Source of the DNA: a virus
Direction: 5' to 3' (one strand)
Virus record (IMG/VR): IMGVR_UViG_3300008807_000159
Span: 1 to 49,654 of that record
Length of the DNA: 49,654 bases
The position numbers and the translations under genes were made by a program. The notes under the pieces are model-generated. The model made no database searches, was not told where the DNA came from, and worked only from the letters and a program-made list of their open reading frames with translations. This document shows positions 1 through 49,654 of the stretch, piece by piece (position 1 is the first letter of the stretch; each line of letters begins with the position of its first letter).

Positions 1-99
1 CCTGATATCCAAGTCGCGATCGTGCTGCCACCAACACCGACCGTAGAAGGATTATACTCCGGAAATCCCGCGACATAGTAGACGCTGTAATTGCTCGTC
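1..99. repeat. Terminal overlap, identical to 49556-49654
   Basis: Exact 99-nt identity read directly. It lies inside a coding region, so it is most simply an assembler circularisation overlap. Confidence 0.95.
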
Positions 100-5274: not shown

Positions 5275-5358
5275 GTCGAACGCTCCATGTTCGGGGTGGT
5301 CAGGGTCGGCGATGTTCCTGCATCGTCGGCCCGAAAGGCTAGCAGAATCCGCCAAAAA

Positions 5359-6192
5359 TCATAGCGAAATCACACTCAACGACCTGCACCCGCAATAAGG
5401 AAGTTGGGCCGGTCGGTCATTTGGCGGGGCGTTAATGGTCTTGCCGTTCACTTTTCCGCCGACCGCTGAAGGGTCGTCCGAATAGACCTTCCCGTCGCGC
5501 GCGATATGCTCCTCACGGCCATGTTTCTTGTGCGACCAGAGCCACTCCCACTCCGACAACCCAGCCTGCCGACGCCGCTCATCCGCCAGCGACGACGTCA
5601 ATTTTCGCAACTGATCGCTCGCACACCGTCGAGCCCGAGCCCGAGACATTCCCGCAACCTCGCGCAACCGCCGCCCAACCTCATCAGCCGGCGTCCGATT
5701 CCTAAGCCCATCGAACACAGCCTGGCTCATCTTCTGCCGCGCCTCATCCGAGACCGAGCGAACCAGCGCGACATTGTTGGCGATGATAGTTTCGAGAGTC
5801 GCGCGCACGTCCGCAGGCCCGAGCATGGTCGAAAGATCGACTTTCGACGCCGACAGCACGGCCGATGTCCATTTCCGCCGATGCCACCGCTCGACGAAAA
5901 GGGTCCAGCGTTCGATGGCGGGTTTCAATGAGAAGAAGATCGCGCCCGATCGGGCCTCTGCCGCAGCAACGTCAGCCTCAAGGTCTGACGGCGCATCAGT
6001 CGTCATCTGGGCGAGCGAACGGGCATATTCCTGGGCAAGCCTGTCGGATGCTTCGACCCACACCTTCACGACCGGCTCATAGGCCGCGCGGTAGAGGTCG
6101 CCTGCATGCATGGCGACTGGCTTGATGTCGCGGATGATGGTGGATTTGCGCAGGCCTTGGCGGCGGGCGAGGGCGGGGAGGGAGAAGCGCAT
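5359..6192 (-). CDS. Head morphogenesis protein (Mu F / SPP1 gp7-like)
   Basis: 277 aa immediately after the portal gene. C-terminal WSHKKHGREEHIARDGKVYS pattern is typical of the MuF family. Confidence 0.7.
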   Translation of the reverse strand: MRFSLPALARRQGLRKSTIIRDIKPVAMHAGDLYRAAYEPVVKVWVEASDRLAQEYARSLAQMTTDAPSDLEADVAAAEARSGAIFFSLKPAIERWTLFVERWHRRKWTSAVLSASKVDLSTMLGPADVRATLETIIANNVALVRSVSDEARQKMSQAVFDGLRNRTPADEVGRRLREVAGMSRARARRCASDQLRKLTSSLADERRRQAGLSEWEWLWSHKKHGREEHIARDGKVYSDDPSAVGGKVNGKTINAPPNDRPAQLPYCGCRSLSVISL

Positions 6193-8114
6193 TAGGCCTC
6201 CTCGATTTTCGACTTCCAGTCCAGATCGAGCGGCTCGAAAATCTCAGGCCCGAAGCGCAACTCGCCCGAGTAGGGCTTGATCTTGTCGAGATCGACGGCG
6301 CCCGCATCATAGGTCAGCGTGACGTGCGGGGTATATTCGTCGTAGTCATGCGAGCCGCCTGCTTGAATCATGTCGTTATGGCGCGAGACCAGCGACCACG
6401 ACGCGAACTGCAGGACGACAGCGCCCTCACCGAAGCGTTCGATCGCGCGCGGACCGCCAGCCTTGACGATCAGTCCGCCGTCAGGTTCGGAGCCCCATGT
6501 CTCGCCCATCTTCATCGGGTCGACGGGCTGGCGTGAATAGAGGACGGTCACATCCATGTCCGACGCTTCGAGCGTCGACGTGAAGCCGTTGGACTTCGCC
6601 CATGCGATGAGCGCCTTTGCCGACGTGGGCTTGAGGTCACGGCGCACATAGAGCGGGCGGGGCGTGGCATCGGCGAAGATGCGGGCGAAGCTGTCGTTGG
6701 CCGCGAGGGGCAGCGGATCGACGTTTTCCTCCTCTTCCTCCTCCGGCATTCCGCCGTAGCGTTCGGCTTCGGGCACCTTGTCGAGCGCCGCGTCGAGGCC
6801 AGGCATCCACCCGTTTTCGACGAGGCCGTTCTGGTATGCCTCGTTGAATGCAACATCGGGGACAGCGCCGGTAAGCTGCACTTTTTCGGCAGCCTCAGTC
6901 CATTTCTTGAAGCGGTCGGTTTCTTCGGCGTCGCTCGGTTCGGAAAGCGGCGCGAACTTCCACCAAATCTCGGGCGGGCGCGAGCCGAGCGCCGAGGGGA
7001 TCAGCGCGGCGTCGATCTTGAGCAGGCATGGACGGGTCTCAAGCTTCTGGCCCTTCATGACCATCTTGTCCCAATTGTCCTGATCGCCCTCGCCGGTTGC
7101 GTTCAGACCCTTGGACGCCGTACCCCAGAAGCGCGTGACCGGGATGTCGGACGCCGCCGACATGGCCTCGGCATAGGCGAGGATCATGCCGGGGATCCCG
7201 GTCCAGTCAACCTGATGGCGGTCGATGGACTCCGCGCCCTTCCCATCGGCATCGCCGTTATCATATACCTTGCCGTTGAAGACCGACGAGCCTTGTTGCA
7301 TCAGGGCGAGGCGCTTCATCAGGTCCGCTTCACCATTCGGCTTGCCGAGCATTTCGAACAGGCGCGAGATGCCGACGTCGACGTTGAGCGCGTCCTTGAT
7401 CATCGCGTTGAACGTCGCCAGCGCCTCGTCGAGATTCTGCGCCGGCTCGATCAGGGTCGGCACTCGGCCCCTGCCCCAGAAGCGGCTTTCCCAGTCGCCC
7501 TTCCAGATCGACGGCAGAGGACGGCCGCGGAAGCATATGACGCGCGAAGGATGGAGGCGGGTTTGTGAGCCGGAGCCGCTCATCTCCCAATATTCGGGCT
7601 CGCCAAACAGGTTGGTCGCCATGTTGTCGTTCCAGTTCTGGCCCGACAGGTGATAGCGCGAGACGACGTTGATGGCGGTAAGGCCGCCCTTGCCGGTGAC
7701 TTTGAGCGGCTGCGAAGGATCGGTGCCCGAGATCAGGATGAGAGCGCCGCCTCCTAGGCCCCGAAGCACCTCGGCCTGCTGAACCTTGGCTTGCAGGTCG
7801 TGCCGCTCTTCTTCGGCCTCGATCAGCTCGATCTGCTCTTTCGTCGCCTGCCAGTCGCGCCACTCGCGCACACGGTCTTCGGCGGGGATGTCGATCGCCT
7901 TCGCCAGTGACCAAGACGCCTCATAGGCCTCCTCGATCTGCGAGGGGGCCATGATCGATGCGATATACTGGCGGCCGAGGCGGGCATCGCCGCGCATTCC
8001 GAGACCGGTGATGACGTTGGCGAGGCCGTCCCGTGCGCGCATCGGCACGACGTTGCCGCCAGCATCCATCACGAAGCCGGGCTTCGGCCGAGGGTTTACG
8101 AGGCGTCCGGACAT
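6192..8114 (-). CDS. Portal protein (DUF1073-type) fused to a C-terminal 2H-phosphoesterase (Acb1/LigT-like) domain
   Basis: 640 aa. The N-terminal ~470 aa are portal-like and follow TerL. The last ~170 aa carry HVTL (His codon 6324-6326) about 75 aa after a DVTV box (Asp codon 6552-6554). Confidence 0.75.
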   Translation of the reverse strand: MSGRLVNPRPKPGFVMDAGGNVVPMRARDGLANVITGLGMRGDARLGRQYIASIMAPSQIEEAYEASWSLAKAIDIPAEDRVREWRDWQATKEQIELIEAEEERHDLQAKVQQAEVLRGLGGGALILISGTDPSQPLKVTGKGGLTAINVVSRYHLSGQNWNDNMATNLFGEPEYWEMSGSGSQTRLHPSRVICFRGRPLPSIWKGDWESRFWGRGRVPTLIEPAQNLDEALATFNAMIKDALNVDVGISRLFEMLGKPNGEADLMKRLALMQQGSSVFNGKVYDNGDADGKGAESIDRHQVDWTGIPGMILAYAEAMSAASDIPVTRFWGTASKGLNATGEGDQDNWDKMVMKGQKLETRPCLLKIDAALIPSALGSRPPEIWWKFAPLSEPSDAEETDRFKKWTEAAEKVQLTGAVPDVAFNEAYQNGLVENGWMPGLDAALDKVPEAERYGGMPEEEEEENVDPLPLAANDSFARIFADATPRPLYVRRDLKPTSAKALIAWAKSNGFTSTLEASDMDVTVLYSRQPVDPMKMGETWGSEPDGGLIVKAGGPRAIERFGEGAVVLQFASWSLVSRHNDMIQAGGSHDYDEYTPHVTLTYDAGAVDLDKIKPYSGELRFGPEIFEPLDLDWKSKIEEA

Positions 8115-16957: not shown

Positions 16958-17136
16958 AACCCAAAGGCCCCCGCCAACCGCCGTGTATGCTCGACGGAAA
17001 GATTGTATTGGCGCGCGACCTGCTCGGCAGGCTGACCCGATCGCACGCGGCGGCGGATGTCGGCATTGCGCGAACAGTCGGCGTTCCAGCGTTCGTAGCG
17101 CTGCGAGGTCCGGGCGAAGAGGTCGAGGCGGTTCAT
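16954..17136 (-). CDS. Small HTH protein
   Basis: 60 aa. ADIRRRVRSGQPAEQVARQYNLSVEHTRRL resembles a resolvase/sigma-type HTH. Confidence 0.5.
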   Translation of the reverse strand: MNRLDLFARTSQRYERWNADCSRNADIRRRVRSGQPAEQVARQYNLSVEHTRRLAGAFGL

Positions 17137-17876
17137 GCGGCCGCTCCTTCAAGGAACAAATCACCTTGCCGCTGAGCGTCCTCGATGCGCTGGCAGGCGA
17201 TGTCGAAAAAACGGGCGTCCTGTTCGATACCGATGAACCGGCGCGCCAAAGCTGTGGCTGCTACTCCGGTCGTCCCGCTGCCCATGAATGGGTCTAGGAT
17301 GATCTGTTCGGGCTGCGTAAAATCCCCGATGATTTCGCTCATCAGGCGCCGCGGCTTCTCCGTGGGGTGCTCGCCGTGGCGTTCTGGATTGTTGACGCAG
17401 TGCGTGTAAACGCCTCGCTTTCCGCTGGCATTCCAGTTCGCATGGCCGCTACCGGCCCACGCGCAAACGAACATTTCGGCACCGGACGCCGGGCCTTGAC
17501 CGTTAAACTGCGGCGTCGAATCCGGTTTCACCCAGACGCAGGCGCGCTTGTATTTCAGCGCACTCTCGTTGATCTCGTCAGCCCAGCGGCCAACGCCCTC
17601 TGGCGTGCAAAAAGCGATGAACCAACCTTGGCTCTTTGCGCCCATGTCAACGACCTGCCTGCGGATCGCGTCGATGGGAGCGAAATTCAAGGGGCGTCCG
17701 AGTCTGGTCGACGCGCCCTTGAGGTTTCCCTTGGGCACTGAACCGATCGCCGCCTGTGTGATCGCCTCATACGGCGGGTCGGTAATCAGATGGGCGACAG
17801 GCCCGAGCGTCGGCACGATTTCGAGCGCGTCACCCTGATAGAGCGTAGCGCGGCCTATGGTGACGGGCTGGCTCAT
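17133..17876 (-). CDS. DNA methyltransferase, N6-adenine/N4-cytosine type (beta class)
   Basis: 247 aa. DPPY motif (ITDPPYE) lies N-terminal to the AdoMet motif ILDPFMGSGTT. Confidence 0.85.
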   Translation of the reverse strand: MSQPVTIGRATLYQGDALEIVPTLGPVAHLITDPPYEAITQAAIGSVPKGNLKGASTRLGRPLNFAPIDAIRRQVVDMGAKSQGWFIAFCTPEGVGRWADEINESALKYKRACVWVKPDSTPQFNGQGPASGAEMFVCAWAGSGHANWNASGKRGVYTHCVNNPERHGEHPTEKPRRLMSEIIGDFTQPEQIILDPFMGSGTTGVAATALARRFIGIEQDARFFDIACQRIEDAQRQGDLFLEGAAA

Positions 17877-18652: not shown

Positions 18653-18880
18653 TCATGCGGCGGCGCTCGAGGGGGTATATTCGCTCGGCGGGTATATGTC
18701 CGGGCGCCACTCGTGCCTCGGGATTCCCGTCACAGCCTCTGCCTTCCGGACAAGCTCGGCGGGAAGTTGCGCGCCCTTCGCAATCCAGTTGGAGATATTT
18801 TGCTGGCTGATCCCGATAGCCTCGCTTGACTCACCGGTCGCCAATGCCAAGGTGCCAAGATGTTGCCGTCCGACAAAATC
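18653..18880 (-). pseudogene. Degenerate second copy of the cro/YdaS-like gene
   Basis: By eye roughly 75-80 percent nt identity to 19262-19440. Encodes ...EAIGISQQNISNWIAKGAQLPAELVRKAEAVTGIPRHEWRPDIYPPSEY. It has no ATG at the equivalent start and lacks 3 codons in the first HTH helix. Its 5-prime end is overlapped by an opposite-strand gene. Confidence 0.55.
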
Positions 18881-19147
18881 GCGCTTGAACGGGAGGTCGT
18901 CACCAACTGCGAAACCATCGGAATTGAGGGTGTCAGGGATAAGTTGGCACAACGAGCCTATTCTGGAATGCGTCGACGGATGGCGGAGGCTTGGCTGGAA
19001 GAGGCGATCGCGGTTCGCGAGCGCGAGATTGATCGCAACATCGCTCGCAGTGGCAACCGGATCACATTTTGGACCGCCGTCAGCGGCAATGTCATTGCTG
19101 TGCTGGCGCTGGCCGTCGCGACCTACGCCGCACTCACAGGGCAGTAG
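18860..19147 (+). CDS. 95-aa tail-anchored membrane protein, opposite strand to the early operon
   Basis: AAGGTG SD 6 nt upstream. Charged helical N-terminus and a C-terminal TM segment ITFWTAVSGNVIAVLALAVATYAAL. Good GC3. The antisense ORF 18653-19201 is not protein-like upstream of the cro homology. Confidence 0.55.
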   Translation: MLPSDKIALEREVVTNCETIGIEGVRDKLAQRAYSGMRRRMAEAWLEEAIAVREREIDRNIARSGNRITFWTAVSGNVIAVLALAVATYAALTGQ

Positions 19148-19148
19148 A

Positions 19149-19265
19149 TCAGTCACGGAGCCGTTCCTTCGTCTGGAAATAGCTGATGAGATTGGCGGCA
19201 AAAGACATGCCGATGCCGAAGGACATGACGATCAGCGCGACAAAGATGACGGGATCGATGCTCAT
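19149..19265 (-). CDS. 38-aa membrane peptide downstream of cro
   Basis: Hand-translated as MSIDPVIFVALIVMSFGIGMSFAANLISYFQTKERLRD. ATGA overlap with the cro stop. Confidence 0.45.
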   Translation of the reverse strand: MSIDPVIFVALIVMSFGIGMSFAANLISYFQTKERLRD

Positions 19266-19504
19266 GCTGCCGCGCTCTGGGTGGGGGCGTATTCGCTCGG
19301 CGGATATATATCCGGACGCCATTCGTGGCGGGGAATGCCAGTCTCGGCCTCCGCCTTGCGAACGAGTTCCGCGGGAAGAGGAGCACCCTTCGCGATCCAG
19401 TTAGAGATATTCTGCTGGCTGGTGCCGATGGCCTCGGCAAGACGGCTCTGCTTGCCGTCAAACTTGGGCAATTCGAGTGCGCGCTGAAGAGGGGTGGTAG
19501 TCAT
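19262..19504 (-). CDS. cro: Cro/YdaS-like HTH repressor
   Basis: Start at ATG 19504 (MTTTPLQRAL...). HTH segment SRLAEAIGTSQQNISNWIAKG. Divergent from the cI-like gene. Confidence 0.75.
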   Translation of the reverse strand: MTTTPLQRALELPKFDGKQSRLAEAIGTSQQNISNWIAKGAPLPAELVRKAEAETGIPRHEWRPDIYPPSEYAPTQSAAA

Positions 19505-19513
19505 GAATGCAAC

Positions 19514-19578
19514 GCTTACAATCCAAGCGTTACAATTACAACCCTTTTGTAGCGGCACTACAATCAATAGTTTTGTAG
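19514..19578. promoter_or_regulatory. OR-like operator/divergent promoter region
   Basis: Half-sites TTGTAG/CTACAA and TTACAA: TTACAAT 19516 and 19530, TTACAAC 19536, inverted repeat TTGTAG-N5-CTACAA 19547-19563, TTGTAG 19573. Confidence 0.6.
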
Positions 19579-19589
19579 CCACCCCGGTT

Positions 19590-20279
19590 ATGCGGATGCC
19601 CGACGATCCCGGCAAGGCCGGACTGTGGACTAAAGCCGAGCGCGACAAGCGCGGCTGGTCGGCGGCCGAACTCGCGAATCGCATCAACGGGCGCGCGAAA
19701 TTTGAGGGTGACGAGGCTACGAGGGTTAGTCAGCAGGTCGTGTCGAAGTGGGAACAAGGCACCACCAAGCGCCCGCCCCCATGGACGCGATATATCACGC
19801 TAGTGCTTGAAGATGGCGATGGCGAAACTTCGCATGATCTCCACCTCCACACCGGCCTTGATGACGCGAGCGTCGACATCCAGCGCTTGCCTACCTTTGT
19901 CGGATTGGGATCGGGCGGCACTGGCGACGACGACCCTGGCAAAGTTTCGTTTTCCCGTGATCTCGTCATGAGGGAGCTGCGGGCGGACCCTGAGGCCCTT
20001 CTTGCGATGGTGGCTGAGGGCAACTCTATGGAGCCGGATTTTCGCGGCGGCGATCAAATTCTTGTCGACACGCGGCGCAAGTCTTTAGCCCAGCCCGGAG
20101 CGTTCTGCATTTGGGATGGCGACGGTCATGTCGTCAAATTCATTGAGAAGGTGCCAGACAGCGAGCCACAACAAATTCGGCTGGTGTCGGCGAACGGAAT
20201 ATATGAGCCCCAGATACGGTTGCTCGAAGACGTCAGCATCATTGGGCGCGTGATTTGGTTTGGGCGTCGTGTGCAGTAG
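19590..20279 (+). CDS. cI: CI-like repressor (HTH plus S24 LexA-type autopeptidase)
   Basis: Start at ATG 19590. C-terminal GNSMEPDF (Ser) and VVKFIEK (Lys) motifs. No SD, so possibly leaderless like lambda cI. Confidence 0.85.
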   Translation: MRMPDDPGKAGLWTKAERDKRGWSAAELANRINGRAKFEGDEATRVSQQVVSKWEQGTTKRPPPWTRYITLVLEDGDGETSHDLHLHTGLDDASVDIQRLPTFVGLGSGGTGDDDPGKVSFSRDLVMRELRADPEALLAMVAEGNSMEPDFRGGDQILVDTRRKSLAQPGAFCIWDGDGHVVKFIEKVPDSEPQQIRLVSANGIYEPQIRLLEDVSIIGRVIWFGRRVQ

Positions 20280-20289
20280 GGGTAAGGGA

Positions 20290-20937
20290 ATGCGGGGGAT
20301 TTTGCTTCTGACTGCACTGCTGGCAGTTCAAGTGTCGGCCAAGGAAAGCAAATCCGAGACCAAGCTGCTCGAGCAGGTGCGGCGCTCGCCCGCGGCGCTC
20401 GAAAATCTTGTAACGATCAAAGGGGATTCCCTCGACCCATCTTATACCGTCACGACGCGGGGAGTTTCGGTGGTTGTCAGCAAGGGTTGGCTGGCGAGCA
20501 CGACATATGAGAACAGCTTCCTACGTGGCTTTATCAGCAAGAAGACCGGAGAAATCACGGTCCAAGTCTATCACTCGGCCACATATGGTGGCAGCGGCTG
20601 GAACTTTTTCAATCGGGCCAGTTACGAAGGCCCGAACGGGCTCGAGGAAGCCAAGGCTGATAAAGTGGGGTCTGACGTTTCTTGTTCGAGTTATGGATGT
20701 ACGCACTATGAGGATGTCGTTTTCGATATCCCTTGGTCTACGATCGAAGCGTTCGCGGCGAAGTATGATCCCGCCAACCCGGTGACAGGACTGAAATACC
20801 GCCTGTTTGGCCAGTCAGGCGTCAACATCGACGAGGCAATTCCGATCAATGAAATCGTGGCGTTTGCGAATGTCATGAAAAAGCTGAGGCAACATGCGCC
20901 TCAGGCGATAGTCCTACCGCCAGCGCAACAGCCCTAG
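20290..20937 (+). CDS. Secreted/periplasmic hypothetical protein (signal peptide)
   Basis: MRGILLLTALLAVQVSA|KES... Starts 10 nt after the cI stop. AT-richer than the phage backbone. Confidence 0.65.
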   Translation: MRGILLLTALLAVQVSAKESKSETKLLEQVRRSPAALENLVTIKGDSLDPSYTVTTRGVSVVVSKGWLASTTYENSFLRGFISKKTGEITVQVYHSATYGGSGWNFFNRASYEGPNGLEEAKADKVGSDVSCSSYGCTHYEDVVFDIPWSTIEAFAAKYDPANPVTGLKYRLFGQSGVNIDEAIPINEIVAFANVMKKLRQHAPQAIVLPPAQQP

Positions 20938-21083
20938 CCCCGCGTCTCCATGCGGCCCACGGAAGTGAGTTCGAAGGGGTTTTTCTGACCAACCTAGCTG
21001 ACATCGACGCTTTTCTGGAGGCTGGCGACAAAAGTCTGCCGGCAGCGCCTAGGTGGATCCCACACAAATCCCGCGAAGGGGAA

Positions 21084-21455
21084 ATGAAGGCGCGGCTTCC
21101 GATCAACATCGGAGGAAGGCTTGCGGGACCAGAAATTGAGATCACGCTGCGAATGTCAGACCCAAACTACATCGTAATCGTCCTTATCACGCCGCTTTGT
21201 ATTGCGCGACTTTGCATTGGCACCGAGCATAGAAATCGCGTCACCGGCGAGACGATTACGCAGCCACACTTCCACCGTTGGGCGGACAATCGGTCCCTGC
21301 CGGCCAGGGTCCGAGCAACGCTACCGTTCGCGTCTCCTTTGCCAATCGACGCCCTGACGCGGGACGCGGCATTCATTTGGTTTTTACACGAAGTTGGGAT
21401 AGAATCGCCGGCCTGGCTTCCAGTGGTTTGGCCATCTCAAGGAGGTATGCTGTGA
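21084..21455 (+). CDS. Hypothetical protein, first gene of a coupled pair
   Basis: 123 aa. GAAGGGGAA lies before the ATG. The stop overlaps the next start (GTGA). No family recognised. Confidence 0.5.
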   Translation: MKARLPINIGGRLAGPEIEITLRMSDPNYIVIVLITPLCIARLCIGTEHRNRVTGETITQPHFHRWADNRSLPARVRATLPFASPLPIDALTRDAAFIWFLHEVGIESPAWLPVVWPSQGGML

Positions 21456-22183
21456 CGCAGTGGGAGGAGATCAAGGCTGCACTATGTGCGGCCCGGCGCT
21501 TCTCGGCAGTGCACGACGGCTTTCGGGTGCTGGCCGATACGATGATGCCGTCTGGAAATCTCATCCACGTCCACATTCAGTTGCGAGACGGTTTGCTTTT
21601 CATGCACGACAATGGCGCGAGTTTTGACGAGCTGGCGCAGCACGGAGCGGAGTGCAAGTCGTCCGTGCAGATCAGGAAGATGCTTGCAGAAACGAATTTC
21701 CGTCTAACGCCTGAAGGGTTCATATTTCGTGACAAAGTGCGTCCCGAGGAGGTTGGAACTGGTGTTGCTCTAGTGGCCGACGCCAGCTTGAGAGCTGCAC
21801 AATTCATGCTTGCGCACGCCAAAGTCAAAGTCGGCAAGGCGCTGGATGTGCGAGTGCGAGACGCATTGCGGCAGCGCTACCCTCAGGGCATGACCAACTT
21901 CAAATTTACCGGGCACGCTCGCCAGCAAACTTTCGATTTCGGATTCGACCACGAAGGCGAGACAATACTCGTCGATGCCGTCAGCCCCGATATTTCGTCA
22001 GTGAACGCTGCGATCGTCAAAAGTCTAGATGCGATCCAGTCTTCGACGGGGCGAGCCCGCCCCATTCTTGTCTTCGACGAGCGAGACAACTGGCCATCTG
22101 ATGCGATGAACCTGTTGGCGATGGCGGGCGGCGAGCGAATGTCGTTCCAGCGGGTCGCCGCAGGAAATCTGCTCGCGGCCTAG
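21452..22183 (+). CDS. DUF1828/DUF1829-like two-domain protein
   Basis: GTG at 21452 with a perfect AAGGAGG (21439-21445) 6 nt upstream. 243 aa. Patterns LIHVHIQLRDGLLFMHDNGASFDEL and FKFTGHARQQTFDFGFDHEGETILVDAV are recalled from DUF1828 and DUF1829; not searched. Confidence 0.6.
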   Translation: MTQWEEIKAALCAARRFSAVHDGFRVLADTMMPSGNLIHVHIQLRDGLLFMHDNGASFDELAQHGAECKSSVQIRKMLAETNFRLTPEGFIFRDKVRPEEVGTGVALVADASLRAAQFMLAHAKVKVGKALDVRVRDALRQRYPQGMTNFKFTGHARQQTFDFGFDHEGETILVDAVSPDISSVNAAIVKSLDAIQSSTGRARPILVFDERDNWPSDAMNLLAMAGGERMSFQRVAAGNLLAA

Positions 22184-22212
22184 CTCGTGTAATCATTTCT
22201 GGACTCAACCAG

Positions 22213-22237
22213 CCCGCTCTCACCCGGCGGGGTTTTT
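22213..22237 (+). terminator. Weak intrinsic terminator closing the cI operon
   Basis: CCCGC (22213-17) / GCGGG (22227-31) stem, then G and TTTTT (22233-37). Confidence 0.45.
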
Positions 22238-22256
22238 CGTGGGCGAGATAAAGTGA

Positions 22257-22319
22257 TTGTAGAGCTACAACCCAAACTACAAATCAGTTGTTGACATAGC
22301 TACAAAGCGATTGTAATCA
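22257..22319 (+). promoter_or_regulatory. OL-like operator plus PL-like promoter
   Basis: TTGTAG-AG-CTACAA 22257-22270 and CTACAA 22277. Consensus -35 TTGACA at 22291-96. CTACAA-N5-TTGTAA 22300-22316 overlaps the -10-like TGTAAT/TAATCA. Confidence 0.6.
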
Positions 22320-22383: not shown

Positions 22384-22620
22384 GTGTCCCGACACGATCC
22401 AGCCCTGATTAAATCCTTCGAGGACAACCGCGCAGCCATTGCCCGCGCGACCAATCCGGTCTTCGCCATCCGTCAGGAGAAGCGCGAGGCCATCAAGGCC
22501 GTCGCCGAACGATATGCCGCTGAGGCAAAGGCCGAAGGTCGCCGCCTCGATTACGACGGCTTCGTCCGCGAGACGTCGGCCATCGAGAGCGAGTATCTGG
22601 CTCGGGAGATGGCGCTGTGA
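22384..22620 (+). CDS. Hypothetical protein, first gene of the rightward early operon
   Basis: 78 aa. GTG start with GGAGAA upstream. Confidence 0.55.
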   Translation: MSRHDPALIKSFEDNRAAIARATNPVFAIRQEKREAIKAVAERYAAEAKAEGRRLDYDGFVRETSAIESEYLAREMAL

Positions 22621-23391: not shown

Positions 23392-23504
23392 ACCGCGCCC
23401 TCGCAATCCTCCGCTCGATCCCGGCGCGCGACTTTCTCGCTGCGTTCGCGATCACCGGCGCCCTCTGGTTCGTCGCAGCTGCGGCATCGGTGGTGCTGCC
23501 GTGA
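23388..23504 (+). CDS. 38-aa membrane peptide
   Basis: MNRALAILRSIPARDFLAAFAITGALWFVAAAASVVLP. ATGA and GTGA overlaps. Confidence 0.4.
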   Translation: MNRALAILRSIPARDFLAAFAITGALWFVAAAASVVLP

Positions 23505-24097
23505 CTGTTGAATGGCGACCTGTCATCGGGTTTCCCGACTACTCGGCCAGTTCGGACGGGCAGATCATGCGGACGGCTCCCGACATGAAGGGACGCCTGA
23601 GCGGGAAGCCCCTGAAGGCGACGCCGGATAGCGATGGCTACTTGCAGGTGAATCTATTCAACCGCGGAACAAGGCGGACGGTAAAAGTTCACACCGCAGT
23701 TTGCGGGGCTTTTCATGGATCAAGGCCGACCGAGGCTCATGAAGTGGCGCACGGCGACGGCGATCAACTGAACAACAGCGCCCGCAATTTGCGTTGGGCG
23801 ACGCGCAAGGAAAACGCTGCTGACCGCGATGATCATGGTCGGACATCGCGGGGCGCATGTCATCCTTCAAAAGTTCGTCCCGGCTATCTGCCGACCGGAG
23901 ACGACCGTTGGACCCGTCGTAATCCGAATTTACGAACTGTCGGCGAGCGGCACGGCAGCGCGAGACTGACAGAAAACGACGTGCGATCAATTCGCATCGA
24001 CAGCCGCAAAAACACTGAAATTGCCGCATCATTTGGCGTCACCTCGACGACGGTCGGGCATATCAAATCAGGCAAAACATGGAGTCATGTCGCATGA
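23501..24097 (+). CDS. HNH homing endonuclease (NUMOD4 plus HNH_3 plus C-terminal HTH)
   Basis: WRPVIGFPDYSASSDGQI (NUMOD4-like). HGDGDQLNNSARNLRWATRKEN (HNH). Confidence 0.8.
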   Translation: MTVEWRPVIGFPDYSASSDGQIMRTAPDMKGRLSGKPLKATPDSDGYLQVNLFNRGTRRTVKVHTAVCGAFHGSRPTEAHEVAHGDGDQLNNSARNLRWATRKENAADRDDHGRTSRGACHPSKVRPGYLPTGDDRWTRRNPNLRTVGERHGSARLTENDVRSIRIDSRKNTEIAASFGVTSTTVGHIKSGKTWSHVA

Positions 24098-24786
24098 CCG
24101 TCACCTTTCACCGAGATCTAATTCAGGGAAGTGACGAATGGCACCAAGCTCGTCTTGGCTTGCTTACCGCCTCTGAATTCAAACTAATTTTGACCCCTAC
24201 CTTAAAGATCGCGAATAGCGAAAAGCTCCGCGCCCACGTCTGGGAACTCGCCGCACAGCGCATCAGCGATTACGTCGAGCCGTCCTTCATCGGCGAAGAC
24301 ATGCTCCGCGGCATGGACGACGAAATCCTCGCCCGCGACCTCTACGCCAAGCATTACGCGCCGGTCGAAGAGGTCGGTTTCGTAACCAACGACAAATGGG
24401 GCTTCACGCTCGGCTGCTCGCCCGATGGGCTGGTCGGCGATGACGGCGGCATCGAGGCCAAGTCGCGCCGCCAGAAATACCAGGTGCAAACGATCGTCGA
24501 GAATTATCGCGCTGGCGGCATCCCCGACGACTTCATCCTGCAGGTTCAGGGCGAGATGCTCGTCTGCGAACGCAAATGGTGGGACTTCATCTCCTACTCC
24601 GGCGGGCTGCACATGGCCGTCATCCGCGTCCACCCGATCCCGGAAATTCAGAACGCGATCGTCGAGGCCGCGGCCGAATTCGAGAAGAACTGCCTCAATG
24701 CGATGGCCGACTATTTCGAGGCCCTGGAGGCGATGCCCAAGCCGATCCCCACCGAACGGAAAATCGAAGAGGAAATGTACGTATGA
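24094..24786 (+). CDS. YqaJ/lambda-Exo-like recombination exonuclease
   Basis: GSDEWHQARLGLLTASEF, CSPDG and IEAK motifs of the PD-(D/E)xK YqaJ family. Confidence 0.8.
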   Translation: MTVTFHRDLIQGSDEWHQARLGLLTASEFKLILTPTLKIANSEKLRAHVWELAAQRISDYVEPSFIGEDMLRGMDDEILARDLYAKHYAPVEEVGFVTNDKWGFTLGCSPDGLVGDDGGIEAKSRRQKYQVQTIVENYRAGGIPDDFILQVQGEMLVCERKWWDFISYSGGLHMAVIRVHPIPEIQNAIVEAAAEFEKNCLNAMADYFEALEAMPKPIPTERKIEEEMYV

Positions 24787-27181: not shown

Positions 27182-27369
27182 CGGCACCCGCGCGCATCAC
27201 CCAGGCCGACATCGATCGCGCCATGAAGAGCTGCAAGAATGCAGGCTATCTCGGTGCGCGCATTTCACTCGATCTCGCCAAGCAGCGCATTGACATATAT
27301 GTCGGTGAAGCCGTTGAATCTCCGCCCCCGGTGAAGGAAGATGACGGCGGAGGCGACGACTATGGATAG
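27178..27369 (+). CDS. Small protein immediately upstream of the integrase (excisionase candidate by position only)
   Basis: 63 aa, overlaps the int start. No recognisable Xis/AlpA HTH. Confidence 0.4.
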   Translation: MTAPARITQADIDRAMKSCKNAGYLGARISLDLAKQRIDIYVGEAVESPPPVKEDDGGGDDYG

Positions 27370-28432
27370 AGACTGGCCACCCAAGCACGTAACGCCGGTC
27401 AAGGATCGGCATGGCAAAAAGCGCTATCGGTATCGCCGAACCGGCGTGAAGAGCTGCTACATCAACCACGCGCCGCAATCGCCCGAGTTTTGGTCAGAAT
27501 ATGACCATCTCGAACAGCTCGGCGCGTTGCCGGATGCTGAAGGTGTGGTTCGCGCCTTCATCCCCCGCAGCATGGATGATCTCGCCTCCAAGGTGAAGCG
27601 CACGACGTCGTGGAAGCGCATGAAGCCGCAGGGCCAGCGCACCAAGGCCAGCATCATCGAACGACTGCTCGACAAGAAGAATAAAGGCGGCCGCCGCCTC
27701 GGGGAGCGTCCCGTAACCGCTGTCACCGTCGCCATGCTCGACGGGATCCTCGGCAAGATGATGGACACCCCCGGTGCGGCCGACAACTTCCGCAAGGAGA
27801 TGAAGCGGCTGTTCGGCTACGCGGTGAAGCTCGGATGGCGCTCAGACAATCCGGCGTCGATGACCGATCCCATTCCCTCGGGCGCGGGCTGGCATACTTG
27901 GACCGATGACGAAATCCAGAAATATCGCGACCATCACGCGCTTGGGACGATGGCGCGCATGACGTTGGAACTGGCCCTCAATACGGCGGCGCGGGCGTGC
28001 AACCTCAACGACATCGAGCGGACACACATTATCCGCGGCAAACTTCACGTCGCCCATGCAAAGGAGAACGACACGACGATCGTTGCCCTACTCCCAGAGA
28101 CAAAGGCTGCCATCGAAGCATTGCCTGTCGCACCGATACGCTTCCTGATTACCACGGCATTCGGCAAGCCGTTCTCGGACAAGGGCATCAGCAACAAGAT
28201 GCGGCAGTGGTGCGATGAGGCTGGGCTACCGCAGTGCTCGCTTCATGGACTTCGCAAGGCGACCAGCCGGCAGCTAGCCGAGAGCGGCGCGACCGATGCG
28301 CAGGGCCGGGCAGTCACTGGGCACAAGAAAGATGCGACCTTCGCCTACTATGCGAAGATGGCGGATCGCGAGAAGCTGGCCGATCAGGCGCTCACCAATT
28401 TGACCCGAGAAAGGGACACAGATGCAGGTTGA
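27362..28432 (+). CDS. int: Tyrosine integrase
   Basis: Start at ATG 27362. Catalytic pattern R (LNTAARACN), HGLRK, TGHK and FAYYAK (Tyr). Confidence 0.9.
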   Translation: MDRDWPPKHVTPVKDRHGKKRYRYRRTGVKSCYINHAPQSPEFWSEYDHLEQLGALPDAEGVVRAFIPRSMDDLASKVKRTTSWKRMKPQGQRTKASIIERLLDKKNKGGRRLGERPVTAVTVAMLDGILGKMMDTPGAADNFRKEMKRLFGYAVKLGWRSDNPASMTDPIPSGAGWHTWTDDEIQKYRDHHALGTMARMTLELALNTAARACNLNDIERTHIIRGKLHVAHAKENDTTIVALLPETKAAIEALPVAPIRFLITTAFGKPFSDKGISNKMRQWCDEAGLPQCSLHGLRKATSRQLAESGATDAQGRAVTGHKKDATFAYYAKMADREKLADQALTNLTRERDTDAG

Positions 28433-28768: not shown

Positions 28769-30005
28769 ATGCGGCATGACCTGGCTCTATCTGCCGCCGG
28801 AAGCTACACCGTCAACGCCCTCGCCATCTGCGCTGGCGTCGGAGGCCTCGAACTCGGATTGCAGCTTGCCCACCATCATCGGGGACAGGCTGTGCGCGGC
28901 GTCTGCTACGTGGAGAGGGAAGTCGGAGCAGCCGCAAGCCTGGTCGCGTCGATGGAAGCGGGGTGGTTTCATCCGGCGCCTGTCTGGTCTGACGCTCGAA
29001 CCTTCGACGGCCGACCGTTTCGCGGATGCGTGGATATCGTCACTTCGGGCGACCCGTGCCAAGGCAATTCCGTGGCCGGAAAGCGGCGCGGCGAACTCGA
29101 CGACCGCTGGCTGCTCGATCGCGCCATCGACATCTTCGATCAAAGCGGGGCTCCAACCTTCTTCCGCGAGAACGTGCCGGGGAACGCCGAGGGACAACTC
29201 GCCGTTGCCATCCCGGCATTGGAGCGACTGGGCTGCCGCATTGCGGTCGGAATATTCAGCTCGGCCGAAACCGGAAATACGATGCGGCGGGAGCGACTCT
29301 TCATACTCGCCCGACGGATGGGCAGCGCCGCAAGCACGGGATCACTTCCCGGCGCACACGGAAGAATATATCGCGGCGAAGAAGGCTCAGGGTCACGGAA
29401 TGCGGAATCTCAACGACGAGGCCGCACAGTGGATGGCCCCGAACGTGCCGAACGGTGGTCGATCGACAGCCCATGCGGAGCAACTCGGCAATACGCTTTA
29501 TCACAACGGGAAGAAGGTCCAGATGATGCTGGAAAGCCAAGCGTCGAACTGGTCCAGTCCGAAAGCATCAGACCCGGAGAAAGCGGGACCGAACATGCGG
29601 GGCAGCAAGGGCGACGTCCCGCTGCCGGCGCAGGCGATGCAGTGGCTGGCGCCCTTGGTGGCCGACGCGGGCGAGAAGATCACGCTGGCCAGCCATCAGG
29701 GATCGCTACTGAAGCAGGCCAACGACTTCCTCCCGCCGTCATCCCCGGACCATCCGATAATCGCGGCTGGATCGACGTCCTCGACCGATTCCCCGAATAC
29801 CAACCAGCCCTCAGTGAAGAGGAAGCTCAATCCCATCTTCGTCGAGGCATTGATGCGATGGCCAACCGGATTGAGCGGCTTCGAGCGACTGGAAATGGCG
29901 TCGATCCTGTGGCTGCGGCTTATGCCTTCCTACGTCTCGATGCTCTTCTCGGCGCTGCCGCATGACACTCAAATGGAAATGTTTGCAGAAAGGCTATCAG
30001 CATGA
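28769..30005 (+). pseudogene. C5-cytosine DNA methyltransferase interrupted by a +1 frame change
   Basis: The frame of 28769 carries motifs I (AICAGVGGLELG), IV (GDPCQGNS), VI (FFRENV) and VIII (RRERLFILA). The continuation (WAAPQARD, WMAPNVPNGG, WSSPKASD, WLAPLVAD, RKLNPIFVEALMRWPTG) is in the frame of 28740. The junction is at 29309-29320. Confidence 0.7.
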
Positions 30006-48082: not shown

Positions 48083-49654
48083 GGCAGGCTCATCCCGTAC
48101 TTCGCGTTGAAATACGCATGGGCCGATGCGAGCTGTCCGGCGCTGAGCGGGTTGCACATGACAGCTTCGGCAAACAGGCCCTTGGTTTCCGCCGTGCCGC
48201 CGTTCGTCGCGAACATGATCGCGGACACCGCCTGCCCGCCGAAGCCAGTATAAGGACCGGCGCCGCTGTTCCCTTGCAACACCCCGTCGATATACAAGTA
48301 CATGCGGTCATTATCGACCGCCCTGATCCGCACGAGATGCGGGGTGGCAGCCGTGGGGGCCGTCGCGCTCAAGCCGACAACCGTTCCCACGCCGACGGCG
48401 TTCATGCGGTACAAGCCCGGCGCTGCGGCAGCATTGTTCCCGACAAAAATGCGCGGATCGCCGTCGGCATAGTCGGCGAGCGCGAACAGATAGGTGGTGC
48501 TTGCATCCCATCCGGTGCCGCCGTCATGATATCCGAGCCACAGAAAGTCGAAGCTGTCGGGGTAAGCCACTCCGCCATTATTGAACTGGGCCGACGTGTC
48601 GCCCCACAGCTTCATCGTCCCGTCGAACTTCGCGGTCTTTCGGCCGTTGACTAGATAGGATGCATTGCCGCGATCGGGTTCGTTGTTGCCGCCCCATGAC
48701 CACAGGTCATGCGTACCGGCTTTGTCGCGGAGGCGCTGGAGCTTATGTTCGTTCTGACTTGCAGACCGATCCGTGGCGTCCCACCAGCCAAGCTGCGCCG
48801 ACGGGTTGAACGGCGTCGCCCCGGTGACCGAAATGTTCCAACCATAGGACGTGTCACCCATGGTGAAGGTGAAGGCGGATGTCCCGCTGGCCGGGGCATT
48901 GGCGACAAGCTGCATCGTGTCGCCGTTCGCAAAGACCGTGGGCGCCGACGTCGCCGAGCCGCCGTTCTTCTTGACCTGCAAACCTGCGCCGGGGGTCAGC
49001 GTCTGTGTTTCGGTGGACGCCATGCCGGCGACAGTGAAGACCGAGCTGGTCAGGCCCGTTGCGCTCGGCGTCTGGCCCTCAAGGTCTACCAGCTTGAAAA
49101 AGACGCTGTTGTAATGCCCCAGCGTCCAGTTGATCGCGGCGTTCACAACGGGCTGGGTAAAGCGAAGCGTGCCGCCCCACGTCACATGCAGCGCGTCCGC
49201 GTTATAATAGTTCGTGTCGTTCGCCGCCGCTTCGGTATCGAGGCCGGGAACAGCAAAAAGATCGATGATCTCGTCGTATAGGATGCCCTTCTGCGCGCGG
49301 ATGCCAGTGGCGACGTCGGCAGCCCACGTGTTGAACCCGGCATACGCGCTTCGGCCTCCCGTCATTGCGGCGGTGCCCATCGCGGCAGGGGTACACACGA
49401 TGATCTTCGTGTTCGGCAAGGCGGCCTTGATCGGCGCGATGGCGGCCCAGAACGCCGTCAGGGCATTCGCGGCAACGGGATAGGTCGGATAATCGTTCGT
49501 GAACAGGTGAACGACCACGACGCCGGGAGCGGCCGAGATGATCGACGCCCGCTGGCCTGATATCCAAGTCGCGATCGTGCTGCCACCAACACCGACCGTA
49601 GAAGGATTATACTCCGGAAATCCCGCGACATAGTAGACGCTGTAATTGCTCGTC
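48079..49654 (-). CDS. SGNH/GDSL esterase fused to a LamG/concanavalin-like lectin domain (3-prime part; the 5-prime part is at 236-1)
   Basis: With the wrapped N-terminus the protein is about 570 aa. SGNH blocks: ISGHSW, GVGGST, FTNDY, DALH. C-terminal ...MYLYIDGVLQGNSG... jelly-roll pattern. Confidence 0.75.
   Translation of the reverse strand, partial: TSNYSVYYVAGFPEYNPSTVGVGGSTIATWISGQRASIISAAPGVVVVHLFTNDYPTYPVAANALTAFWAAIAPIKAALPNTKIIVCTPAAMGTAAMTGGRSAYAGFNTWAADVATGIRAQKGILYDEIIDLFAVPGLDTEAAANDTNYYNADALHVTWGGTLRFTQPVVNAAINWTLGHYNSVFFKLVDLEGQTPSATGLTSSVFTVAGMASTETQTLTPGAGLQVKKNGGSATSAPTVFANGDTMQLVANAPASGTSAFTFTMGDTSYGWNISVTGATPFNPSAQLGWWDATDRSASQNEHKLQRLRDKAGTHDLWSWGGNNEPDRGNASYLVNGRKTAKFDGTMKLWGDTSAQFNNGGVAYPDSFDFLWLGYHDGGTGWDASTTYLFALADYADGDPRIFVGNNAAAAPGLYRMNAVGVGTVVGLSATAPTAATPHLVRIRAVDNDRMYLYIDGVLQGNSGAGPYTGFGGQAVSAIMFATNGGTAETKGLFAEAVMCNPLSAGQLASAHAYFNAKYGMSLP
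49556..49654. repeat. Terminal overlap, identical to 1-99
   Basis: Exact identity read directly. Confidence 0.95.

Follow-up and report, generated by a model that had tools for sequence, protein, structure and literature searches.

Genes A and B, two overlapping genes on the + strand, lie downstream of a cI-type repressor gene in the immunity region of a temperate sphingomonad phage, the virus record IMGVR_UViG_3300008807_000159, whose entire 49,654-nucleotide stretch was analysed and is called the window below. The favoured reading, to which a probability of about one half was assigned, is that A and B would be a two-protein, nuclease-fold defence pair that is expressed in the lysogen, forms a moron of the repressor operon and belongs, as a divergent member, to the PADLOC defence candidate PDC-M24. 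The reading draws on the anatomy of the locus, its modularity, the conserved pairing of the two genes, their linkage to repressors, the fold of B and remote homology, each of which is documented here; the defensive function is predicted from them.

Conserved pairing, mobility and family of A and B

An earlier note, made from the letters of this window, had proposed looking for the pair next to repressors in other prophages, and this association was found. Among 39 fetched loci (numbered L001 to L039), A was located directly upstream of B, with an overlap of 1-4 nt, in all loci with upstream sequence but L025. The identity of A and B to the window copies dropped in parallel, from 73% and 84% in L010 to 38% and 45% in L018. 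B relatives at only 26-30% identity still kept an A homologue upstream, which was recognised by hhalign at 97.6% in L021 (E=4e-12), 93% in L020, 98% in L024 and 99.5% in L026; L020 is Bradyrhizobium sp. USDA 4504, where the order A-B is kept at about 27% identity. Relatives of the studied genes came from Sphingomonadales (Caenibius, Sphingobium, Pelagerythrobacter, Novosphingobium and Sphingomonas). The repressor count was made over the 20 non-redundant loci with at least 700 bp upstream of A. A same-strand repressor gene, either helix-turn-helix (HTH) plus S24 or HTH alone, was present no more than two genes upstream of the pair in 15 of these 20 independent loci and mostly abutted it, and the repressors concerned were only 25-65% identical to each other or could not be aligned. 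Judged from these sequences, the two genes form an ancient, obligate pair that is tied to repressors.

One of the remaining loci, the Caenibius sp. WL phage, has the pair inverted but still inside the immunity region, between the operators of the left promoter (PL) and a thermonuclease-repressor operon, where it begins beside operator-like repeats of the PL region. Another is the Bradyrhizobium copy, which is found at a prophage end, next to the integrase gene and away from any repressor. A search of a plasmid collection returned only the Caenibius sp. WL 'plasmid p1' (L027, NZ_CP081845.1), a 38-kb circle with the same gene order as the chromosomal prophage L001 (CP081844.1); because of this shared order, p1 is probably an excised phage genome. 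Gene A is unannotated in the RefSeq record, where the features at locus positions 5335 and 6004 leave a gap between them.

A block of 1,320 bp (window 20923-22241, + strand), which holds a leader, A, B and a terminator, was 99.9% identical in contigs L006 and L009. The identity begins 15 nt before the stop codon of the preceding reading frame, called gene1, and ends just past the terminator. The flanks of the block in both contigs are unrelated to the window; upstream, L006 carries a lipoprotein gene and an S24 repressor that differs from that of the window. Such a near-identical block between unrelated flanks indicates that A, B and their terminator are transferred between phages as one self-contained unit. 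The region 20290-22237, from gene1 to the terminator, is also low in guanine plus cytosine (GC). Its GC content of 56.5% compares with a window mean of 61.3% (standard deviation 2.0, stretches of the same length), which places it in the lowest 2.6% of positions and among the two lowest-GC stretches of the genome. The dip noticed in the earlier note is thus real, if mild, but the values given there (48-53% against 63%) were overstated; the median 60-nt line of the region has 57%.

When the proteins of the three-gene region were searched against PADLOC, a check that had also been suggested, the pair matched only two components of a single candidate, A to PDC-M24A and B to PDC-M24B, in the candidate's own gene order. 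The window B matched the PDC-M24B models PDLC04540 at E=1.5e-4 and PDLC04539 at E=0.006; PADLOC itself might not call the window copy. Of a 52-member B family, 26 matched PDLC04540 and 18 matched PDLC04539 at E<=1e-3, the best at 1.1e-10, and no other PADLOC family was matched. A matched PDC-M24A weakly and in its histidine region, at E=0.027 when read as a 123-aa protein and at E=0.015 as a 155-aa protein; five other A homologues gave no match to this model at E<0.1. Negligible if taken alone, the weak A matches gain some weight from the fact that the sole PADLOC match of A is the partner of the sole PADLOC family of B, in the same order. On these profile matches, the best reading is that A-B may be classed as a divergent, alphaproteobacterial member of PDC-M24.

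PDC-M24 corresponds to cassette CAS_00098 (FAM_00129>>FAM_00065), with 153 occurrences, and was selected on the ground that its cassettes sit inside loci of BREX, DISARM or type I restriction-modification (RM) systems (Payne et al., bioRxiv 10.1101/2024.01.29.577857). Like A-B it consists of two genes in the same order, and its profiles, of 151 and about 255 aa, compare with 156 and 243 aa here. It differs in setting, since the candidate comes from BREX, DISARM and type I RM loci and the window pair from a phage immunity region. PDC-M24 supplies no mechanism for A-B, and no mention of it by name was found in the literature searched.

The predicted proteins

Gene B (21452..22183, + strand) encodes 243 aa in two domains, a DUF1828-like N-domain and a DUF1829-like C-domain with a predicted restriction-endonuclease-like fold. 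As the earlier note had read it, the GTG start at 21452 overlaps the TGA of A (GTGA) and is preceded by a perfect AAGGAGG at 21439-21445; the homologues begin at the same residue. By these signals, A and B are translationally coupled. When 1.84 billion cluster representatives were searched with a profile of 30 B sequences, 403 of them matched at E<=1e-3, almost all with a length of 245-255 aa.

The description of B as DUF1828/DUF1829-like held through its relatives, but the window protein itself gave no direct match to either Pfam family at E<0.1. DUF1829 was matched by 9 and DUF1828 by 7 of the 52 family members, at about threshold; the relatives P0054 and P0070 reached 22.3 and 23.5 bits against the Pfam DUF1828/DUF1829 cutoff of 22.2, and P0070, the Bradyrhizobium member, is named 'DUF1829 domain-containing protein' by NCBI. 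B is accordingly placed in DUF1828/DUF1829 by homology at the superfamily level and through relatives only. B also matched phrog_1960, a family of unknown function, at E=1.8e-4. Neither A, B nor gene1 of the window had a match above threshold in Pfam, NCBIfam or PHROGs.

The AlphaFold2 (AF2) model of B has two domains and a mean predicted local distance difference test score (pLDDT) of 90.6. In the C-domain the modelled elements follow in the order b147-153, b158-167, b170-176, a181-195 and b202-208 (b, beta strand; a, alpha helix), which gives an alpha-beta-beta-beta-alpha-beta core. The top Foldseek matches in the PDB were AF1548/1y88 (E=2.3e-4, probability 1.00), NucS/EndoMS (2vld/5gke) and the nuclease domains of Can2, Cdn1 and Card1 type; a search of the PDB sequences with the family profile of B gave chance matches only (E ~0.7). 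The likeness to the PD-(D/E)xK nucleases NucS/EndoMS, AF1548 and Can2/Card1/Cdn1 lies in the core of the C-domain and in acidic residues on beta2 and beta3. Unlike in these enzymes, the catalytic lysine is unconserved in B, and its N-domain is not of CARF type and does not clearly form a NucS-like barrel. Among the 52 diverse members D53 and D193 are invariant, D209 is nearly invariant, an acidic residue (D/E) at position 162 on beta2 is kept in 47 and one at position 175 on beta3 in 50. On the model it is plausible that B would be a metal-dependent nuclease.

Gene A (20985..21455, + strand) encodes a small beta-rich protein, of 156 aa if translation begins at CTG 20985 and of 123 aa if it begins at ATG 21084. 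The shorter form was the one named in the earlier note, and it is also the recorded gene call on the 99.9%-identical contig L006. The comparison with other loci favours the longer one. All A homologues are 152-170 aa long and start about 32 codons upstream of ATG 21084, and in the window the frame upstream of this ATG is open and encodes the conserved N-terminus. The codon that aligns to the ATG, GTG or TTG start of the homologues is ACC, which leaves the preceding CTG 20985 as the sole candidate start; a Shine-Dalgarno sequence GAAGGGG (20973-20979) is situated five bases before it, and the same CTG/ACC arrangement is repeated in four related contigs. L007 is 95% identical overall; its non-coding DNA upstream of A has diverged, but the N-terminal coding stretch of A is the same as in the window, which argues that this stretch is translated. 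The product of A is thus probably the 156-aa form with a CTG start. Naturally short A proteins, suggested by homologues of 130-133 aa, were considered and rejected for L026, in which the upstream frame keeps the N-terminal extension and the start chosen by the gene caller is too late.

With residues numbered on the 155-aa translation from 20988, H81, H94 and H96 of A are invariant out to the most distant homologues and lie in a motif H-x-H-x-W-x-x-N-R. These three histidines are probably a metal site. A Cys/His zinc site including C71 and C76 was rejected, the cysteines varying in distant homologues and the histidines alone being kept. A transmembrane helix at residues 62-80 was likewise rejected; this segment models as a buried beta-hairpin and has charged residues in distant homologues. 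For an HNH-type reading of the motif (H-x-N...H-x-H), neither the spacing nor a fold match speaks in favour.

The AF2 model of A is mainly beta (pLDDT 90.2; predicted template modelling score, pTM, 0.86). It had no significant fold match in the PDB (best E=0.4), nor did the family profile match any PDB sequence, and a single match in BFVD was to an uncharacterised siphovirus protein (template modelling score, TM, 0.62). The Pfam family DUF6978 was matched at 17.7-18.2 bits (E=0.003-0.005), below its gathering cutoff of 29.6 bits and in the histidine region only, and the other A homologues had no DUF6978 match. According to a recent preprint, the conserved histidines of DUF6978 make up a putative metal site, and the conservation of the A histidines fits this description.

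Proposed defence role and its competitors

Under the defence reading, A and B would be made in the lysogen either by read-through from the repressor maintenance promoter (PRM), since no terminator intervenes before 22213, or from a dedicated promoter. Consensus scans of the window and of L001 found no promoter belonging to the pair, and such scans do not settle the question. The two proteins may form a complex in which B would act as a metal-dependent nuclease effector and A as a sensor, regulator or cofactor subunit. This complex would act on superinfecting phages, through either cleavage of their DNA or abortive infection.

Superinfection-exclusion and abortive-infection systems have classically been found among the genes that directly follow prophage repressors; lambda rexA-rexB and 933W stk are morons downstream of cI, and RexB is a polytopic membrane channel. 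A-B resembles rexAB in being two genes that lie downstream of cI on the same strand, before the left operator and promoter (OL/PL), and are closed by a terminator. It differs in showing no sequence or fold similarity, A and B being modelled by AF2 as soluble globular proteins with a predicted nuclease-fold effector; no match of A or B to a Rex protein was found in Pfam, PHROGs or PADLOC. The earlier classification as a rexAB/sieB-type system therefore stands in its position logic but not for the proteins, which do not resemble RexA, RexB or SieB and, in the case of A and B, lack membrane-protein features. By position, A-B may be considered a functional analogue of lambda rexAB built from unrelated soluble proteins.

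A second comparison is offered by DS-6B/HipAD (DUF3037 plus DUF1829) from DefensePredictor, a protein of a validated two-protein defence system in which its partner is a HipA-like kinase; through DS-6B, DUF1829 is listed among the domains newly implicated in defence (PMC13092281). The likeness to B is one of domain family, and a relationship would hold at the domain level only. DS-6B differs from A-B in its HipA-like kinase partner and in having DUF3037 in place of DUF1828; A-B contains no kinase.

Several observations weigh against a nuclease-based defence pair. The Foldseek scores of B are modest (E 2e-4 to 1e-2, TM ~0.3) and apply at the domain level only. The beta3 motif of B reads D-x-V177 and no lysine is conserved across the 52 members; K190 is restricted to the sphingomonad clade, and some sphingomonad members have Q at position 175. 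Since the canonical lysine of the (D/E)xK motif is absent, the nuclease activity of B is uncertain. The weakness of the A matches to PDC-M24A and DUF6978 (E ~0.003-0.03) counts in the same direction. L025 has a B relative without A upstream, and tblastn searches with B and its distant relative P0070 found no match in 50,697 GenBank phages. PDC-M24 is one of 145 phage defence candidates that its authors list as untested (bioRxiv 10.1101/2024.01.29.577857), a listing that also makes too strong the statement in the earlier note that none of the products has a known function. Finally, a gene for a HIRAN-domain protein is present within a few bases after B in five loci, which could point to the processing of DNA ends or replication forks rather than to immunity.

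The most serious competitor, which is nevertheless unlikely, is that A-B serves the phage's own biology, through modulation of the repressor or of induction, DNA end or fork processing, or counter-defence. The strict repressor linkage across very different phages would suit such a role, as would the start of the Caenibius pair beside operator-like repeats. So would the HIRAN genes, whose domain binds 3' ends and forks and which are coupled after B in L004 (8734-9141), L017 (8677-9129), L018 (8720-9106), L019 (830-1222) and L039 (6744-7139). The pair is, however, absent from most related phages and has been swapped between phages that differ in cI and early genes, which marks it as a moron and not as a core regulator; moreover, the library families matched are defence candidates only, and the copy at the Bradyrhizobium prophage end is away from any repressor. 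The HIRAN gene, which is missing from the window, may be a third, optional part of the module.

Somewhat less probable again is an addiction module of toxin-antitoxin type that would stabilise the prophage, in which B would be a toxic nuclease, A its neutraliser and any anti-phage effect secondary. Two tightly coupled genes with the smaller one first, moving as a self-contained block and residing on mobile elements, including a prophage end by an integrase gene, are what such a module would look like, and the DUF1829-bearing DS-6B has been proposed to be one partner of a toxin-antitoxin-like defence pair. A is nevertheless a poor antitoxin: it has no DNA-binding domain, no resemblance to known antitoxins and no PDB relative, and at 156 aa, with a well-folded model (pTM 0.86) and invariant histidines, it is more reminiscent of an enzyme or a sensor than of a labile antitoxin. 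The B relative without A in L025 is also unexpected for a toxin that would go unneutralised.

Compared with these alternatives, the defence pair remains the favoured reading. That defence morons follow cI is an established paradigm, and the family has already been catalogued as a candidate; what is new are the module boundaries, the corrected gene model of A, the broad repressor linkage, the fold of B and a protein A without structural precedent. PDC-M24 has so far rested on 'guilt by embedding' in restriction and BREX loci. Repressor linkage and embedding in RM or BREX loci are two independent context signals, by which an attempt to validate the family is well justified. With its defined ends (20923-22241), the 1.3-kb block is ready to be cloned as it stands, and biochemistry would add information, as no solved relative explains what either protein does and A has no solved relative at all. 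A broader and more tentative proposal, possible rather than likely, is that A-B may represent a widespread, uncharacterised class of repressor-linked prophage immunity. In it a histidine-metal protein, of a fold without solved relatives, would control or assist a non-canonical, lysine-less restriction-fold nuclease, and the two genes, sometimes with one for a HIRAN protein that recognises DNA 3' ends, would hop with their terminator as a cassette between the cI operons of unrelated temperate phages in Alphaproteobacteria and beyond. A-B would then be a soluble, nuclease-based counterpart of RexAB with a new sensing mechanism.

Gene1 and the slot between cI and A

Gene1 (20290..20937, + strand) occupies the slot between cI and A, outside the A-B module, and encodes an orphan protein of 215 aa. 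Its N-terminus (MRGILLLTALLAVQVSA followed by KE) is a typical Sec signal, in agreement with the signal-peptide protein named in the earlier note, and its GC content at third codon positions (0.64) is coding-like. Family searches in Pfam, NCBIfam, PHROGs and PADLOC gave chance-level matches only, and no relatives were detected in scans of deposited phages, IMG/VR and Joint Genome Institute (JGI) metagenomes. A cluster look-up placed the gene1 sequence solely on the 49,654-bp JGI/IMG contig itself. Gene1 is adjacent to A-B in the window and in no other of the 39 fetched loci.

Each related phage has its own lipoprotein, membrane protein or secreted protein in the slot. Lipoproteins are encoded in L004 (7024-7506, lipobox LLSAC) and L006 (260-790, lipobox LLYGC), and a multi-transmembrane protein together with a signal-peptide DUF2846-like protein in L010 (9111-9972). 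The slot is empty, with cI abutting A, in L017, L018, L029, L031, L034 and L039. On this comparison gene1 is a moron independent of A-B, in an envelope-protein slot that is hypervariable. From its position and signal peptide, the protein may act at the cell envelope, perhaps as an exclusion protein. The slot proteins are candidates for envelope-level superinfection exclusion, and the slot is a second lead, apart from A-B, towards proteins of sphingomonad phages that mask receptors or block entry.

The break in identity within the end of gene1, together with the different upstream gene elsewhere, indicates that gene1 and A-B are two modules. The interval from cI to OL/PL accordingly consists of two independent morons and not of the three-gene cassette described in the earlier note, the module boundary at 20923 falling inside the end of gene1. 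That gene1, A and B were co-acquired as one rexAB/sieB-type cassette with a secreted protein working with the pair is very improbable: all three do share one strand in the interval from cI to the terminator, which no other terminator interrupts, and their GC content is below that of the window, but gene1 accompanies A-B at no other locus, the contigs that share the A-B block at 99.9% identity have another gene upstream, beyond the break 15 nt before the gene1 stop, and cI directly abuts A in the six loci with an empty slot.

The phage genome and its immunity region

The first 99 nt of the window (1-99) are identical to its last 99 nt (49556-49654). Owing to these identical ends the window is a complete, circularly closed temperate phage genome of about 49,555 bp, and not a prophage with host flanks. 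The lambda-like topology that had been described, with the morons in the rexAB position, was found again: the order is cro, the right operator (OR), cI, three + strand open reading frames (ORFs), a hairpin terminator, OL/PL and an operon running from exo to int. The half-site TTGTAR/YTACAA occurs 25 times in the 49.6 kb, and 11 of the 25 copies fall within two clusters (19516-19578 and 22257-22316). These clusters bracket the cI unit and thereby define OR and OL/PL.

OR (19516..19578) contains 6 operator half-sites, against 0.05 expected per 100 nt, and a promoter scan placed a promoter-like site at 19535-19564 (+ strand) within it, the candidate PRM. The repressor gene (19590..20279, + strand) encodes an HTH domain and an S24 autopeptidase. 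Its ORF is open from GTG 19494, and the start is most likely ATG 19590, which gives 229 aa. The product matched Pfam Peptidase_S24 (5.5e-12), HTH_3 and HTH_31 weakly, and the transcriptional repressor family phrog_4 (3.5e-25). The gap between the cI stop and ATG 20290 is 10 nt, as reported before, and no + strand terminator-like site was seen in it; from cI to 22213 the only such site is one within the coding sequence of B.

The cI/moron unit is closed by an intrinsic-terminator-like hairpin (22213..22240, + strand) inside the mobile block, with a 6-bp stem, a 7-nt loop and a GTTTTT tail. The terminator proposed earlier is thus present, its hairpin and T-run lying at 22213-22231, but it scores weak, and terminator-like sites are no more numerous in the region than in shuffled sequence. 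OL/PL (22257..22316) contains a perfect TTGACA -35 hexamer, flanked by 5 operator half-sites, and reads into the early-left operon of the + strand, which includes orf78 at 22384, a YqaJ exonuclease gene (24079-24786) and the integrase gene (27341-28432).

The cro-like HTH gene (19262..19504, - strand), recognised from its ORF and translation, is divergent from cI and is the first gene of the rightward (- strand) operon. A second cro-like HTH ORF at 18653-19201 (- strand) is its tandem paralogue. The C-terminal halves of the two are near-identical (...QQNISNWIAKGA.LPAELVRKAEA.TGIPRHEWRPDIYPPSEY...), and at the DNA level they form a 154-nt direct repeat with 81% identity, 612 nt apart.

A homing-endonuclease-type gene with NUMOD4 and HNH_3 domains (23501-24097, + strand) lies directly upstream of the YqaJ gene and overlaps it. 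In the close contigs L007 and L008 the HNH gene is placed after YqaJ instead, which suggests a mobile endonuclease. The portal protein (6192-8114, - strand) matched Phage_portal_3 at 4e-82, and at its C-terminus the anti-CBASS domain Acb1 (residues 487-635, E=1e-41). It appears to be a portal-Acb1 fusion, by which a counter-defence nuclease would be placed in the virion. In the rightward operon, the translation of an ORF at 17133-17876 (- strand) shows a DPPY motif typical of N6/N4 methyltransferases. With the C5-cytosine methylase gene just past the integrase (28769-29965, + strand), the phage may carry two DNA methyltransferase genes.

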